The position numbers were made by a program. 64,000 bases of DNA from an uncultured Bacilli bacterium (GTDB lineage Bacteria > Bacillota_I > Bacilli_A > RF39 > UBA660): positions 12,190 to 76,189 of the forward strand of contig CALVOP010000004.1 of assembly GCA_944350345.1 (NCBI GenBank), in the 5' to 3' direction. Of this stretch, positions 50,001 to 56,000 are shown piece by piece. Position 1 is the first letter of the stretch; every line of letters begins with the position of its first letter.

Positions 50001-53000
50001 TTTCAATTAATCCTTTTGGGTCAATATTTGATAAATGTACTTTTTCTTTGACTGTATCTATGATTACATCTCCCCATATTAATCCATTTCTTACTTGTAA
50101 ATCATTGTATAAGTCTGGCGTTATTGAATAGTAGAAATACCCGAATACTACCCTTTTTTGTCCAATAACTAACCTTTTGTTTGTTACAGCAATTACACAT
50201 GTTGTAATTATGTCTAAAGGATTATCATTTTTTTGCCCACAAAACGCATATAAAACTCTTTCTCCTGGATTTAAGTGCATTTGTACTACCTTGGAATTTT
50301 TCTTTAGCCTCCAAGCTATCGTACGTGGATATTTCCTTTTAAATTCTTTTACTTTATTATATACTTCGTTTTGTTCCATTTATATCACCTAACTATTTGG
50401 AATAAATTCGCCAATTGCGCTTATTTTTGTAACAAAATATGTACCTTGAGCAGTATTTGGCGCATCTTCTTTTACCCATGCATATAAATTAAATATTTTT
50501 TGTTCTCCTGCTGATATTAAAATATTACTTGCTAATTTATAGTCAGTTAATGCTGAATATAACTGTACTGTTGGATTTAAACCGTCTTCTCCAAATCCAA
50601 TCATTATGTTGCTATATGCTGTCTCTGTATAATCAGAATAATCTGGAAATTCTGTATTCAATATAAATTCCGTATCTGGTTCAAGTTTTATTGTTACATA
50701 TAAGTCATAGTCACCTGTATTTTCTAAAATAAATTTGTATGGAGTAGTATTTAATCCTTCAGTTTGACTCATTGGATATACCTTGACCGGCACTGATTCT
50801 CCCTCTTCATTTGTTTCTGTACCAATTATATTGCCTAAATTTTGAACTAAAGAATTACAAGACGAATCCGCGCAAAAAGACATTGCTATATCACCAAAGT
50901 TTATAACATTTGTTCCCCCTTCTTCTACATCCATAAAAACCGAATATGAAAAAGCGATTAACCCTAATGTTACTAGGATAATTGTTAAACTTGCAATCAT
51001 AATTTCTCTTTTAATTAAAACACGCAAATTCACATTACACCACCAGTCCATATCATCTATTTATTATTTTATAATATTATTAGCCCTTTTTCAACTGTTT
51101 AGTGAATTAATTTTATCTAAGATAGCAAAATTTATATTTAAATTTTTATTTTGTTCACTATTGGGTGTATCACTATTTAACCATATGTAAATTTTATTAT
51201 AATTAATTGTATTTTTTTCTATTGTATTTGAATCAATTAAAAAGTATGTAATGTAATCATTTTCTGTGTAATAACAATCACTTAACTTTAATGTTTTTCC
51301 ATTTATATTTATCATTAAATAATTTGTATTTAGTGTTGAATTTTTTTCTACTATTAACATAAGGCTGTACTTTTTATTTTCTTTGGTGTTATTTATTACG
51401 TTTATAATTGAATAATCTAAATTGTTTAATGCGTATTCATTGGTCACTGGATATAAGTTATTTAAATCTGCTTTTTTTTCGTAGTATAAAGTAACATCAC
51501 TAGCTTCATAGTTATCGTAATATTCTGCAATTTTGGCTCCTTCACTCTCTCCTATCATATGCAAAACTGGATATGTAAATATTACTAAAAATATTAAAGT
51601 TATTATTTCTATAATACACTTAGTAATCTCCTTATTTATGCCCATTTTTCCCCCTTTTGTTTTCAAGTGTTATATTTTAACAATAATTTTCTATTTTGTA
51701 AACAAAAAACGGCAAATGCCGTTATATGTTATTTAATTTTTGTGTATCTGATAATTTTTTCTTTTTCTTTTTATTAATTTCTTCTACTTCTATTTTTTCT
51801 ATTTTTATTTCTTCTTTTTTCTCATTTTCTTCTTGTTCTTCCTTGTCTTTTGATTCTTCTATTTTCTCTTTTTTGTCCACATCTTCTTTTTCTTTATTAT
51901 GTTTGTTCTCGTAGTCTTTTATAATTTTTTTATATAATTTTTTACTTTTATTTTTACTTATCAATACACATATTAATATTATTAATAGCAGTATGCTTTC
52001 TGCACCTAGTACTATTATTATAAATTGTAGATTTTTAATTGTTCCATTTAGATAAATGGTTTCTTCATCCGTATACCTAGATATTGTGTTTTCTTTAGTG
52101 TCAATTTTATATATGTTTTCTTCTCCTGTTTCTATGTTTAAACCATATATAAGAAAGAAGTCACTATTTTTATCTATTTTGTAACCTGTTAGTTTTTCTC
52201 CATTTAGTTCAATTTCGTATTTTTGATAGTTCTCTGGATATTCATTATATTCTTTTGGATAAATTATTATATTATTAAATGTTAGTTCTTTGTATGGGGT
52301 GTAGGTGTTATTGGTCTCATCATATATATAGAGATTTATTTCTTCTTCTCCTTCAATTTTTATTCCAACTAATGTTAACTTTGTTATATCACTTATAAAC
52401 GCGGGTATTTCTTCACCATTTATGTTTATTGTCGTTTCGTTAAATGTATTTGGTTTGGTAAGTGTTGATGCTCTTTTGACTATTGTTCCTGTTTTTCCGT
52501 CTGTTGTTTCAACTGTTATTGGATTTGGATCTTCAACTTTGACATTTATTTTGTATTTTCTTTGACTTCCATTTTCTGCTGTTACTAATAGTTCAAATAT
52601 GTTGTCTCCTTCACTTACTTCTTTTTCTCCGGTTCCAGTAAGTGTCGCTGACCTATCATTTACTTCTGCATTTAATGTTATTTTTTCTATATTACTTGGA
52701 ACTGAAACTGTGTATTCAAGTGTTTCTGCATTAAATGTAGGAGTTAGTTCATATCCATCTACTGTAATGGATTTTAAGGTATTATCTTTTGAATAAGAGG
52801 CAATTAAATCATCTTGTGTTATTAATTTAACTGTTTTTGAACCTGCTGTTAAAGTCATTAGGCTTTCATCCCATGCATATGCTCGATAAGATTTTACTGT
52901 TATGTTAGTGCTTCCTGAACTTAATGCTTTAAATGTGTATGTGTAACTTTTTGATTTGGTTGTTCCATCACCATAGTCTACTACATTTGATGTTCCACTT

Positions 53001-56000
53001 TGTAATTTTACCTTATTTGAGTCATAACTTATTGTGTATTGCCAACTTCCTAAAGCTGCAGAAGATGAGATTTTAACTGTTACTTTAAATGTGTTTCCTA
53101 CTACAACTGTGCTCGCTGAACTTGTAACACTAATTGTTCCACTTGAAGCATTTACTTGTAAAATTCCACCAAATGTTAGCACTATTCCTAATATAAATAT
53201 ACTTATTTTCTTTAACATTTTTTCACTCCTTTTTTATAATTTAATCTCATTTAATAAATGTTTTTGTATTCTTAATAAATCTAATATTGTTACTGAATTG
53301 TCAGCATTGGTGTCAGCAGCTTGTAGATAGCTATTTGTTAGTTTGCTTGAATTTAATAAATGTTTTTGTACTTTTAATAAGTCTAGTATAGTTATTTCAC
53401 CATCTCCGTTAGCGTCTCCTGTTACAACTATTGTGAATGTTTTGCTTTCACCATTTGAACTTGTTATTTGTAATGTTTGTCCTGTGGCAAAATTTGAAGT
53501 GTTGGATATTGTTACTCCGTTGGCATTTTTGTATACTATGCTTGCATTTGGATCTGCTTGTCTAATGTTTAGAATTAATGAATTTGCACTTGTTCCTGTG
53601 CTTATGTTTTTCATATAGTTATCTGTTACTTTTACGCTCAATTTTGATAAGATATCGTTTATTGTTGTTACAGATTCTACTTTAATTATATGCACTGTAT
53701 ATGTTTTTTGATGTCCACTTTGTGCGGTTACAAGAATCGTTATTGTTGTCTTTTCTTCATTTAATTTAACGTTAGTTTCGTATTTTGCAGTAGATGTACT
53801 TGCGTTTGTAACTGCATTTATTATTGCTGTGTCAGTATCTTTTGTTACATAAAAGTTATATTCTAAAACATCTGTATCAAAGTTATCTATGGCTTTGTTG
53901 TTAATCGTTATGCTTTTTAATGAATTGTCTGTATTTGCTATATTTGGTAACCCTGTTGAGTCTGGCATGTTGTTATAAACTGGTATTTCAAATGTATATG
54001 CATTTTCTAATAAACTTAATTCTACAATTGTGTCATACATGCTTTCTCCTTCTTGTGTTGGCGCCATTATGTTTGTCATGTATTGATTTGTGTAATATGG
54101 TGCTGAAGCGGTATTGAATTTTTGGTAATATAGAGTGTTTTGGCCACTGCTTATGTAATTTGTTGCAATGAAGTTTGCTCCTCCTATAATTGCATCTTTT
54201 CTTGTTTTCCAAGGTCGCCCAAATGTGTTAGATCCCCCACATTCAGCTCCAGCTGCATATTTCAACCCTTCCATCCAAGATGAATTTGCGCCTATGTTGT
54301 AATAGTTGTAGTATCCAGTTAATAAACATGTTCCATAGTAGCCTGTATACGTTCCTGTTATAGCTCCATAACTTTCATTAGCCCCACCTTCTTTGTATAC
54401 TCTAGCTGCTAAGTGTAATGGACTAACGTCATACTTTTCTGCTGCTTCAAGAAAATATCCTATGTATTCATCACTTGATAAATATGATGAGCCAAAAAAT
54501 GTTTTTAGTACTTCTGCGGTGTGATACTCTGAATCATAAGTTAAATCTTCAAACATGAAAATAAATACGTCGCTTAAAAAGTTTCTAGGGTCTAAGAAAT
54601 AGGCATCGACTGCACTATTGGTCATATACCAATTTCCGCCTTCTGTCCCTACTGCCCCGCTTGCAATATAATACTCTAACTCAGTTGTCGTCGTGCTTTC
54701 AATTTTGTTGTTGCCTTGTTCTCCGCTTACTACGTCATTCCAATTTAAACCTTTGTTTACGGCTACAAAATTCCAAGTTGGATGGTCTCTGTGCATTCTC
54801 ATTAAATATGGTATGTATGTTGCTGGAAATCCATTTTTTGATAATGTTTCAGCATATGCTTTTTCTTCTTCAGTGTATTCGCTACTGTTTAATGTTAATT
54901 CTTCGTATGTACTTATGTATGAACCGCATACATAGCCTTGCTTCCCATCGTGATATGATACATATAACCAGTTGCTAGAACAACCACTTGCTTTTGGATG
55001 TGTTGAAATTATATTTACTGGTGTTCCTGTTATTAGTTTATCTAGTCTTGTTGAATTTCCGTTTGGTAAACTTCTTACACTTATATAACTTGAAGTATTT
55101 ACTTTGGCAAAATATCCACCGGTTACTGTTCCAATTTCGTCTTCTATTATACTTATATAAGTACTGCATACATATCCTTCTTTGTTGTTATATTCTGCTT
55201 TGTACCATCCATCTGAGCATCCCGTTCCAGTGTATTTATTAACGTCTAAAATTGTTACTTGTGTATTGTATTTTATTTTCGTTATTACGTTATCACCTGT
55301 ATTAGGCGCACTTCTAAAATTAATCCCTATACTATCATTTACTATTCCTATTTTACTTGCAAAAATTTTGGGAATAAAAAGAAAAAGTGACAAAACAAAA
55401 AATACTAATAATATTGTCTTTTTCATTTTATCACCACCTTATCATATTAATTATACCAAAACATAAAAAATATGTCATTATTTAGACATATTTTTAGTTC
55501 TTACTAATGTAAAATTAAATTATTCTCCTCCGATTTCTTTCCCTTGTTTTTTTATTCTGTTAATTTTATTTTTTACTGCGACTAATTTTGCAATTTTTAC
55601 TATATCATAGGATATTACTGCTAAAGCTGGTATTAGTATTGCTATGAACCATCCTCCTTGACTAGCTAAGAAGAATTGAACTCTTCCTAAAGCCGGTATT
55701 TTAAATATTACTTTTCCTACTATATTTTGTTCATAAACGTACTCATTATCAACAACAGCATTTGCATCGCCTTTTGTTATGTAACTAATACCTTCTTCAG
55801 TATTATATTTTTCAACTATTCTGTGAGTTATAGGTTTTCCATCAAAGTATACATTATTTGAATAAAATGATATTACATCTCCAACTTGTAATGCTGATGT
55901 GTCAGTAGTTTTAACTACTACTACATCATATACTTTTATGTTCGGCGTCATACTAGGGCTTATAATAGTATATAAACTTATTGGCGGAGTTTTTCCTTTA

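Follow-up and report, generated by a model that had tools for sequence, protein, structure and literature searches.

Plug-and-socket pairing of dockerin and cohesin modules is best known from cellulose-degrading machines. The window, the whole 64-kb stretch of DNA analysed here, from an uncultured gut bacterium, contains one dockerin and one cohesin-like domain, on the products of two neighbouring genes, and the question that they raise is what such a pair does on a candidate peptidoglycan hydrolase and a membrane protein. We consider it probable that the two genes form a self-contained operon for a two-part wall hydrolase system, in which a dockerin-tagged GH73 enzyme is held by a cognate membrane cohesin. 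If so, this would be a GH73 enzyme held at its producer's own surface by a cohesin–dockerin pair outside the cellulosome.

The two open reading frames, of 730 aa and 498 aa, lie on the reverse strand exactly where a reading made from the sequence alone (the sequence-only reading) had put them, with 15 nt between them and an AGGAG motif 8 nt 5′ of the ATG of the second. The first comprises the following features.

53234–55426, reverse strand: gene for a secreted, dockerin-tagged GH73 N-acetylglucosaminidase, 730 aa (open reading frame, Pfam and PDB searches)
55358–55426, reverse strand: signal peptide, aa 1–23, MKKTILLVFFVLSLFLFIPKIFA, cleaved before SK (read from the sequence)
54902–55327, reverse strand: two SH3_3 domains, aa 34–92 and about 105–175, presumed wall-binding (Pfam, PDB)
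54017–54874, reverse strand: divergent GH73 catalytic domain, aa 185–470 (profile against PDB)
54389–54391, reverse strand: codon of the catalytic Glu, E346 (alignment to staphylococcal enzymes)
aa 448–452: QYMTN motif, the YATD equivalent
53684–53920, reverse strand: Cadherin-like β-sandwich, aa 503–581 (Pfam, 27.0 bits against a cut-off of 24.2)
53438–53671, reverse strand: region X, roughly 80 aa, running into the dockerin without a linker
53237–53425, reverse strand: type-I dockerin, aa 668–730, two 22-residue Ca-loop/helix segments, DANGDGEITILDLLKVQKHLLN and DTNADNSVTILDLLRIQKHLLN (Pfam, PDB, Ca ligands)

The hydrolase is predicted to be exported with cleavage of its signal peptide. Pfam recovers the expected SH3 repeats, presumed to bind the wall, as two SH3_3 domains (E = 2.1e-20), and SH3 structures 2kt8, 2kyb and 2krs are among the PDB matches. 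The GH73 domain likewise stands, on PDB profile matches rather than on Pfam: model PF01832 (GH73) matches neither the full-length hydrolase nor its isolated domain, but the family profile retrieves SagB (4.6e-32), Atl (4.4e-26), AtlE (1e-22) and chain 5wqw, an N-acetylglucosaminidase/cell surface protein (1.2e-13). A single-sequence PDB search also matches the Staphylococcus aureus Atl glucosaminidase (1.5e-9), and the NCBIfam SagB model scores 32 bits where its cut-off is 425. E346, invariant in 13 orthologues, aligns with the Glu of the staphylococcal LLETG motif. The profile matches and this residue support an active endo-β-N-acetylglucosaminidase of the SagB/Atl/AtlE type, the activity itself being predicted. 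Region X has no Pfam match, and the Cadherin-like domain is homologous to that of the downstream protein (29% identity to its aa 148–227, E = 5e-11).

The C terminus passes the Dockerin_1 model as anticipated (aa 670–725, 52.3 bits against a cut-off of 22.9), with PDB dockerin matches 8x39, 2ccl_B and 2vn5_B. Both segments, DANGDGEITILDLL (aa 671–684) and DTNADNSVTILDLL (aa 705–718), have the canonical Ca-binding residues of the loop at positions 1, 3, 5, 9 and 12, and those at positions 1, 5 and 12 are kept in 63–71 of 71 orthologues; the module is probably Ca-dependent. It is also the least diverged part of the hydrolase: its mean pairwise distance is 0.56, compared with values of 0.60 in the catalytic domain and 0.76 in the neighbouring region X. 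At 13 non-ligand positions, identity of the repeats is 78% inside one protein, against 44% between proteins. They thus seem to evolve in concert, and this likeness matches the internal symmetry expected of dockerins with two equivalent binding faces.

The downstream gene encodes the candidate partner, organized as follows.

51722–53218, reverse strand: gene for a type-I membrane protein with an N-terminal cohesin, 498 aa (open reading frame, Pfam, profile searches)
53147–53218, reverse strand: signal peptide, aa 1–24, ending ILQVNA before SS (read from the sequence)
52814–53146, reverse strand: short cohesin, aa 25–135, at the membrane-distal tip (PF00963, AF2, Foldseek, PDB sequence matches)
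52538–52777, reverse strand: Cadherin-like β-sandwich, aa 148–227 (Pfam, 39.7 bits)
52025–52537, reverse strand: membrane-proximal all-β orphan domain, aa 228–398, with no known relative
51959–52024, reverse strand: single transmembrane helix, aa 399–420, FIIIVLGAESILLLIILICVLI (sequence)
51725–51958, reverse strand: cytoplasmic K/E-rich tail, 78 aa, with 26 Lys and 17 Glu (sequence)

Pfam and the sequence confirm the proposed signal peptide, Cadherin-like domain and C-terminal transmembrane anchor of this protein. The helix is followed by SKNKSKK, so by the positive-inside rule the ectodomain should lie outside, and the protein would be a type-I membrane protein that presents a single cohesin at the outer tip of a stalk of three domains. 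A Pfam scan of the full-length protein finds no cohesin; the isolated N-terminal domain (aa 25–146) passes PF00963 with 29.3 bits against a cut-off of 24.1 (E = 1.1e-6), the match spanning profile positions 7–99 of 139 in a cohesin that is short, at about 110 aa. This score is about 5 bits over the threshold, two out of three orthologue domains scored in the same way come just under it, and BatD and chagasin-type β-sandwich models score close to the cohesin model. The AF2 model of the domain (pLDDT 95.7) has cohesins as its best PDB matches in Foldseek (E = 1.5e-6 to 5.6e-6, TM 0.66–0.72), headed by non-cellulosomal cohesins from Clostridium perfringens GH84C and GH33, A. fulgidus and C. acetobutylicum. 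Cohesins also account for 13 of its 16 PDB sequence matches, and the family profile recovers true multi-cohesin scaffoldins. As modelled, the domain folds as a cohesin, as had been supposed from its sequence.

Relatives of the hydrolase occur in at least 528 species-level genomes, of which the best 80 loci were examined. In each of the 83 related loci where sequence extends downstream, as in the window, the partner gene lies directly 3′ of that for the hydrolase, with a median gap of about 10 nt; these loci come from metagenome-assembled genomes of Bacilli and Clostridia. One genome (L068) carries the pair duplicated as a unit. Every one of the 79 complete hydrolase genes among the best 80 loci retains the dockerin. 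At 50% identity, there are 698 representatives of the cohesin-like domain; about 12 distant loci keep the dockerin beside a partner whose N-terminal domain gives no detectable cohesin signal. We read the two genes as a conserved, self-contained bicistronic operon, kept as a pair in at least 80 gut bacterial species. Tethering of this kind had been described as unusual, and that description does not hold: the arrangement is not rare.

The two modules also diverge together. Across 82 pairs, distances between dockerins correlate with those between partner N-terminal domains at r = 0.67, compared with 0.31–0.50 for the dockerin and domains of its own polypeptide, and the partial Mantel coefficient controlling for five other domains is 0.515 (p = 0.001), in a test that is anticonservative where sequences share phylogeny. 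Four further domain pairs between the two proteins were tested, and three of them lie between −0.07 and 0.09; the exception is region X, which diverges fast and tracks the Cadherin-like and proximal domains of the partner (0.42, p = 0.001). An intra-protein control, the GH domain against its own Cadherin-like domain, gives 0.50. Discrete classes of dockerin helix correspond to discrete classes of partner N-terminal domain, and both change together. Operon conservation, dockerin constraint, concerted repeats and co-divergence combine to make the proposed binding between dockerin and cohesin well supported.

The dockerin would plug into the cohesin of its cognate partner, which would keep the enzyme on the producer's own envelope, a stalk length above the membrane, without its diffusing away; retention at the cell's own surface is the most likely outcome. 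There the tethered enzyme may trim or separate peptidoglycan as the wall matures or as daughter cells part, a role to which neighbouring LCP (LytR-CpsA-Psr), PBP, LtaS and teichoic-acid genes lend contextual support.

In the literature searched, we found this arrangement noted once, for Ruminococcus bicirculans, a non-cellulolytic gut Firmicute whose sole cohesin and sole dockerin occur together with a GH73 enzyme (Ze et al. 2015 mBio PMC4611034, after Wegmann et al. 2014). The statement is a one-sentence genome annotation, so the likeness to the present pair is one of description; our searches returned no experimental test and no binding, activity or distribution data for an arrangement of that type. 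Cohesin and dockerin modules of C. perfringens join soluble enzymes acting on host glycans to one another, and anchors of the OlpA/OlpC type attach through SLH domains and bind either scaffoldins or enzymes for plant polysaccharides. The C. perfringens GH84C and GH33 cohesins (PDB 2w1n, 2jh2, 2vo8), the best structural matches of the partner domain, resemble it in joining secreted glycoside hydrolases outside cellulose degradation; they differ in that the single cohesin here sits on a transmembrane-anchored stalk and would hold an enzyme predicted to act on the cell's own wall, and sequence identity is only 15–18%. The Clostridium thermocellum anchoring scaffoldins OlpA and OlpC (PDB 3ul4, 4dh2) likewise use a single type-I cohesin on a surface protein to capture a dockerin-bearing enzyme; cohesins of this type are among the fold matches of the partner, and dockerins of such complexes among the sequence matches of the hydrolase. 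Here, in contrast, the anchor is a transmembrane helix, the predicted cargo a peptidoglycan hydrolase and the cohesin some 30 residues shorter.

A refinement that keeps the binding, and that we hold only tentatively, sees the partner as chiefly regulating the enzyme and not as a passive anchor: its fixed-length stalk and a possible second interface would set where and how the glucosaminidase cuts, much as SpdC scaffolds SagB and sets product length, and the K/E-rich tail could couple it to intracellular cues. In the SagB–SpdC peptidoglycan release complex of S. aureus (PDB 6u0o; bioRxiv 10.1101/2020.05.21.109470) a GH73 glucosaminidase is placed at the membrane by a dedicated membrane partner, and SagB, whose chains are the solved structures most closely related to the catalytic domain here, is active only in complex with that protein, which orients its active site. 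The second inter-protein signal (X against the Cadherin-like and proximal domains), the homologous Cadherin-like domains of the two proteins, and the conservation of the partner's proximal domain and tail across the family are consistent with such a role. However, that signal matches the unrelated intra-protein control in size; the partner, a single-pass protein with a cohesin, is not homologous to SpdC, which is CAAX-protease-like with eight transmembrane helices, in a complex that uses neither cohesin nor dockerin; and the enzyme carries a signal peptide that can be cleaved off, where SagB has a membrane anchor of its own.

That the two proteins do not bind each other seems unlikely. The dockerin would then be a Ca-stabilised module for a wall polymer or for a cohesin encoded elsewhere, and the downstream gene an independent, co-transcribed surface protein. 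Many dockerins lack a cognate cohesin (Ruminococcus albus has 58–90 dockerins and at most one cohesin; PMC4081043), and the borderline HMM score, with other β-sandwich families near, and the distant loci without a cohesin signal agree with this reading. Set against it are the constancy of the partner gene beside very different flanks, the duplication of the pair as a unit, a co-divergence of dockerin and N-terminal domain above that with any domain of the same chain, the matching changes of class, and the presence of one of each module in the window.

The genomic setting bears on a further proposal of the sequence-only reading, whose cohesin–dockerin pair is upheld by the HMM, fold, operon and co-divergence results. 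It had placed the pair inside a SipW fibre locus, and a SipW gene (55520–56152) and four TasA-like genes do lie directly upstream on the same strand. The pair itself appears to have its own boundary elements.

55450–55478, reverse strand: promoter-like site, ATGACA-17-TATAAT plus TG, within the 93 nt that separate sipW from the hydrolase gene (best score, 11/12, in a 7.2-kb region)
51708–51723, reverse strand: terminator-like hairpin, AACGGCATTTGCCGTT then TTTTGTTT, overlapping the partner stop codon (hairpin scan)

Promoter-like sites are in total no more numerous than in shuffled sequence and terminator-like sites number 3 against 1.9 expected in the region, so each element is weak evidence. 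Recruitment of the hydrolase to a SipW-processed TasA-like fibre, or its service as wall-opener for one, with the pair as a fibre-locus accessory, is very improbable. In its favour, the window and the related loci L006 (93% identical DNA) and L001 (protein identity 62%) all have the pair directly downstream of sipW and TasA-like genes, the downstream 220-aa product begins like a TasA-like signal region (read from the sequence), and the flagellar protein FlgJ uses a GH73 domain for assembly across the envelope. Against it, the TasA-like proteins of the window carry neither cohesin nor dockerin, the promoter-like site separates the pair from sipW, the hairpin with its T-run ends the partner gene, and sipW adjoins the pair in just those three of 86 loci and TasA-like genes in five. 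The link to the SipW locus is lineage-specific; an LCP gene lies next to the pair more often (33 of 85 related loci), and the pair is equally conserved beside LCP, PBP, LtaS, teichoic-acid, DNA-replication and sporulation genes.

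Two minus-strand genes 15 nt apart, lying where the sequence-only reading had placed them, encode a dockerin-tagged GH73 protein (the hydrolase) and the membrane protein that follows it directly downstream (the partner):

53234–55426, minus strand: hydrolase gene (730 amino acids)
53438–53671, minus strand, within the hydrolase gene: region X (residues 586–663), fused directly to the dockerin
51722–53218, minus strand: partner gene (498 amino acids)

An AGGAG sequence lies 8 nt ahead of the partner's ATG. In this region, the highest-scoring promoter-like site (11/12, with TG) is found within the 93-nt gap after sipW, and a T-run-bearing hairpin overlaps the stop codon of the partner; both are matches to consensus only. 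The window has a G+C content of roughly 25–33% and is collinear for 14.3 kb, at 93% identity, with a locus (L006) from a gut metagenome-assembled genome (MAG) labelled 'uncultured Bacilli bacterium' (CALVVO010000021.1).

The hydrolase contains two SH3_3 domains (Pfam, E = 2.1e-20) and a cadherin-like β-sandwich (residues 503–581; 27.0 bits against a cut-off of 24.2). Its catalytic domain was left unclassified by Pfam and NCBIfam. The Pfam Glucosaminidase family (PF01832) gave no match in the hydrolase, the isolated central domain included, at E ≤ 10, and the GH73 label of the sequence-only reading is therefore not derivable from Pfam. The label itself is correct: a single-sequence search of the Protein Data Bank (PDB) with the hydrolase returned the glucosaminidase of Staphylococcus aureus Atl (6fxo, 1.5e-9), AtlE and SagB, and an 18-sequence profile of the catalytic domain matched SagB (6u0o_B and 6fxp, 4.6e-32), Atl (4.4e-26), AtlE (9.7e-23) and an N-acetylglucosaminidase/cell surface protein (5wqw, 1.2e-13), with no PDB matches beyond these four. 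Glu346, which is invariant in alignments of 13 (A4) and 18 (A6) sequences, aligns with the glutamate of the staphylococcal LLETG motif (Atl, SagB), and the hydrolase's QYMTN aligns with QYATD, which holds the tyrosine of the YATD motif. On the basis of these matches and aligned motifs, we predict that the hydrolase is a divergent GH73 enzyme of the SagB/Atl/AtlE type and probably active. A phage endolysin was rejected in view of the signal peptide, a chromosomal context kept in more than 80 species and the absence of phage genes nearby.

The dockerin assigned to the C terminus in the sequence-only reading was borne out: residues 670–725 match Dockerin_1 (PF00404) at 52.3 bits against a threshold of 22.9, covering profile positions 2–57 of 57. 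This module comprises two 22-residue segments with canonical calcium ligands, DANGDGEITILDLLKVQKHLLN and DTNADNSVTILDLLRIQKHLLN, each consisting of an EF-hand-like calcium loop (D-A-N-G-D-G-E-I-T-I-L-D and D-T-N-A-D-N-S-V-T-I-L-D; ligands at positions 1, 3, 5, 9 and 12) followed by a helix. The aspartates at loop positions 1, 5 and 12 are present in 63–71 of 71 orthologues. The recognition positions 10, 11, 17, 18 and 22 (numbered as in PMC4081043) are identical across the two repeats, being Ile-Leu, Gln-Lys and Asn. Among the hydrolase modules, the dockerin shows the lowest divergence (mean pairwise distance 0.56; catalytic domain 0.60; adjoining region 0.76), and at 13 non-ligand positions the repeats share 78% identity within a protein versus 44% between proteins. 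Variant helices are altered in both repeats jointly (for example, ISGIDMLRVQKH twice, KINDLILIQSH twice and SADYIAIKNHIM twice). Such symmetry would be expected if the dockerin retains two equivalent cohesin-binding faces.

The partner consists of a signal peptide, a roughly 110-residue N-terminal domain (N-domain), a cadherin-like domain (39.7 bits; 29% identity with that of the hydrolase), a β-rich domain of roughly 170 residues, a single transmembrane (TM) helix (residues 399–420) and a 78-residue tail with 26 lysines and 17 glutamates. Searched at full length, the partner gave no cohesin report in Pfam, and its BatD and chagasin matches were below threshold. The isolated N-domain scored 29.3 bits on the cohesin family PF00963 (cut-off 24.1; profile positions 7–99 of 139), and orthologous N-domains scored 27.9, 23.8, 22.9 and 29.8 bits, so this result is borderline. 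A 38-sequence N-domain profile gave 16 weak matches among PDB sequences, 13 of them cohesins (best 3l8q, E = 0.0022), spanning only the first 55 or so residues, which include the 'YD' strand. An exhaustive profile search retrieved 698 cluster representatives, nearly all of 430–560 amino acids with the domain at residues ~24–147. True scaffoldins were retrieved as well: the first contains five Pfam cohesins (216 bits), the second four cohesins and a dockerin.

An AlphaFold2 model of the N-domain, built from the alignment, is all-β (pLDDT 95.7, pTM 0.84). In a Foldseek search of the PDB with this model, all top seven matches and most of the top 50 were cohesins (E down to 1.5e-6; query TM scores 0.59–0.72). 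The best matches are the Clostridium perfringens GH84C (2w1n and 2jh2, E = 1.5e-6) and GH33 (2vo8, TM 0.72) cohesins, along with a non-cellulosomal cohesin of Archaeoglobus fulgidus (2xdh) and CohA2 of Clostridium acetobutylicum; dozens of type I, II and III cohesins occur lower in the list. The N-domain therefore folds as a cohesin, the outcome on which the sequence-only reading had staked its cohesin claim. Its ~110 residues fall short of full-length cohesins (~140–150 residues), which makes it a cohesin shortened by about 30 residues. A chagasin-like inhibitor and a BatD domain were both dropped as identities for the N-domain because the fold search and the retrieved true scaffoldins indicate cohesins.

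The two genes travel together. The hydrolase has more than 1,000 relatives at E ≤ 1e-10, and PF00404 is found in all of the best 120, down to 35% identity. Six metagenomic contexts (38–62% identity) have differing flanks, and the next gene always has the same partner architecture. Scanning one genome per species yielded at least 528 relatives, of which the best 80 loci were examined; these come from MAGs of gut and rumen origin with the labels Bacilli, Tenericutes, Acholeplasmatales, Erysipelotrichaceae, Mycoplasma sp. CAG:611, Clostridium sp. CAG:524 and Clostridium sp. CAG:710 and, among the more distant members, from Lachnospiraceae, Roseburia, Agathobacter, Blautia, Acutalibacteraceae and Anaerovoracaceae. 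HMMs built here detected the dockerin in 86 of 87 hydrolase open reading frames, the sole exception being cut off by a contig edge, and a recognizable cohesin-like reading frame directly 3′ of the hydrolase in 73 loci, mostly with gaps of 8–15 nt; in the remaining loci with downstream sequence, the adjacent gene encodes a signal peptide, a β domain of ~100 residues and a cadherin-like domain. Among the divergent N-domains of the latter group, one reaches 29.8 bits on cohesin and another 19.9 bits; four are without a Pfam match. One rumen Bacilli MAG (L068, 8001–15170) carries the whole pair as two tandem copies. Dockerin retention, adjacent partner genes and these tandem copies thus identify the pair as a conserved two-gene module.

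Some loci show individual features. The two L068 copies have dockerin helices and cohesin sequences unlike each other, which suggests a cognate pair that was duplicated and then diverged. In four loci (L035, L036, L039 and L044), the partner N-domains match the cohesin profile built here marginally (E ~1e-4) or not at all and look more Ig-type-like; L036, the one run against Pfam, gave no cohesin match. Their dockerins have in common a helix, S(A/V)DYI.IKNHIM, that is very unlike the others. In L004 (8270–9208), the partner gene ends after 312 residues, ahead of the TM helix, which could reflect a frameshift, a pseudogene or an assembly error.

From these features we infer how the two products would bind and act, and what role they may serve; we regard the following mechanism, taken as a whole, as the most likely one. 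Both proteins would be exported, and the partner would remain in the membrane with its cohesin atop a stalk of cadherin-like and orphan domains. The hydrolase dockerin would bind this cohesin in a Ca2+-dependent manner and the SH3 domains would engage peptidoglycan, allowing the GH73 domain to cut glycan strands close to the membrane of the producer itself, in wall maturation or cell separation. The partner might instead be a regulator, more than a mere anchor; this reading is compatible with the same binding, and we consider it somewhat unlikely.

Indirect support for the proposed binding comes from the conserved gene order, from the low divergence and repeat symmetry of the dockerin, and from divergence patterns across loci. 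The dockerin distance matrix correlates best with that of the partner N-domain (r = 0.67, 82 pairs), compared with r = 0.31–0.50 for domains of its own polypeptide. With five other domains controlled for, the partial Mantel correlation of dockerin and N-domain is 0.515 (p = 0.001), a test that is anticonservative where sequences share phylogeny; the inter-protein controls gave −0.07 (dockerin and the partner's cadherin-like and proximal domains), 0.035 (X and N-domain) and 0.09 (GH and N-domain). Two further combinations reach 0.42–0.50: X with the partner's cadherin-like and proximal domains, and GH with the cadherin-like domain of the same protein. N-domain sequences and dockerin helices both fall into discrete classes that match each other, and the classes also follow taxonomy. 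We consider it quite unlikely that the dockerin and the partner do not bind each other. X is the fastest-diverging part of the hydrolase, yet it tracks the partner's cadherin-like and proximal domains (partial Mantel 0.42, p = 0.001). Within a tethered complex, X may therefore form a second contact with the partner, like the X-module of X-dockerin dyads.

The nearest mechanistic analogue of the pair is SagB–SpdC of S. aureus, in which a GH73 enzyme is scaffolded by a membrane protein to cut nascent strands (bioRxiv 10.1101/2020.05.21.109470). In that system, SagB is membrane-anchored and SpdC is a polytopic, CAAX-protease-like protein, whereas here the hydrolase has a cleavable signal peptide and the partner is a single-pass, cohesin-bearing protein. 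The hydrolase scores 32 bits on the NCBIfam SagB model (cut-off 425). The components of the pair are unrelated to SpdC, so by analogy the pair may work like SagB–SpdC without being a member of that system. In contrast to a cellulosome, which combines a scaffoldin of at least two cohesins with dockerin-bearing plant-polysaccharide enzymes, the pair has one cohesin per partner in all loci and a peptidoglycan hydrolase as cargo, and no second dockerin occurs in the 64-kb window. Cohesins and dockerins outside cellulosomes are reportedly already known (Peer et al. 2009, as cited in PMC13487519). In Ruminococcus bicirculans, a non-cellulolytic gut Firmicute, a single cohesin and a single dockerin are reported to occur with a GH73 enzyme (Ze et al. 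2015, PMC4611034, citing Wegmann et al. 2014). We found no paper on a dockerin with a peptidoglycan hydrolase or GH73 domain that tests such a pair or its distribution. This analysis adds structural evidence for the cohesin, the architecture with a TM anchor, the spread of the operon across gut Firmicutes, the dockerin–cohesin co-divergence and the dissociation from SipW.

If the tether is real, the cohesin–dockerin interaction is a routine leash for a potentially lethal wall hydrolase in many uncultured gut Firmicutes (RF39-like and Erysipelotrichaceae-like Bacilli, Lachnospiraceae and Acutalibacteraceae). It would place a glucosaminidase close to the membrane by a second route, independent of SagB–SpdC, and would extend cohesin/dockerin biology beyond polysaccharide degradation, and dozens of co-diverged matched pairs, small at ~110 and 65 residues, would be usable as orthogonal connectors in protein engineering. 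A broader reading, which we think unlikely, is that the operon is a widespread, uncharacterized housekeeping machine of gut Firmicutes and a functional analogue of SagB–SpdC, in which a co-evolving cohesin–dockerin interface and a possible second one (X with the orphan-fold stalk domain) may hold the glucosaminidase at a fixed height over the membrane, where it may process nascent glycan strands. Were this true, wall biogenesis, not cellulose degradation, could be a major and possibly older use of cohesin–dockerin pairs, and each lineage's matched pair would contribute to a natural library of orthogonal specificities.

In the window, the pair is flanked by sipW and four TasA-like genes on one side and by two small unassigned genes on the other, with further features at greater distance:

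55520–62118, minus strand: SipW/TasA-type fibre locus (SipW, TIGR02228, 102 bits; four TasA-like paralogues)
50389–51666, minus strand: two small genes (191 and 220 amino acids) downstream of the pair
40787–42841, plus strand: homologue of LCP (LytR-CpsA-Psr), 9 kb from the pair
62174–63427: CRISPR-like array of ~19 units with a 66-nt period

The sequence-only reading had linked the pair to the fibre locus, but conserved co-occurrence fails: of 86 loci, only 3 have SipW next to the pair and 5 have TasA-like genes there. A role for the pair as a SipW fibre accessory is very improbable. The commonest neighbour is an LCP gene, which 33 of 85 related loci have beside the pair, often directly adjacent (it lies at 13810–15795 in L001, a related locus); class-A PBP, LtaS and teichoic-acid genes are other neighbours across loci. 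The pair appears to be a self-standing unit of wall biogenesis that came to lie beside the fibre locus in the window's lineage.

Homologues of fibre-locus genes precede the pair in L001. In the window, this locus also encodes a 568-residue protein with ~25 DxDGDG(K/L)PD calcium-loop-like repeats and a TasA-like C terminus, and a 451-residue Big_2 protein with weak CHAP/NlpC-P60 matches. The 191- and 220-residue products have no Pfam or NCBIfam match, and homologues of their genes were found in L006 only; the N terminus of the larger product (…AFSYSVFMD) is similar to the TasA-like signal region. The first two 132-nt blocks of the CRISPR-like array share 98% identity, suggesting that a repeat-spacer pair was duplicated.
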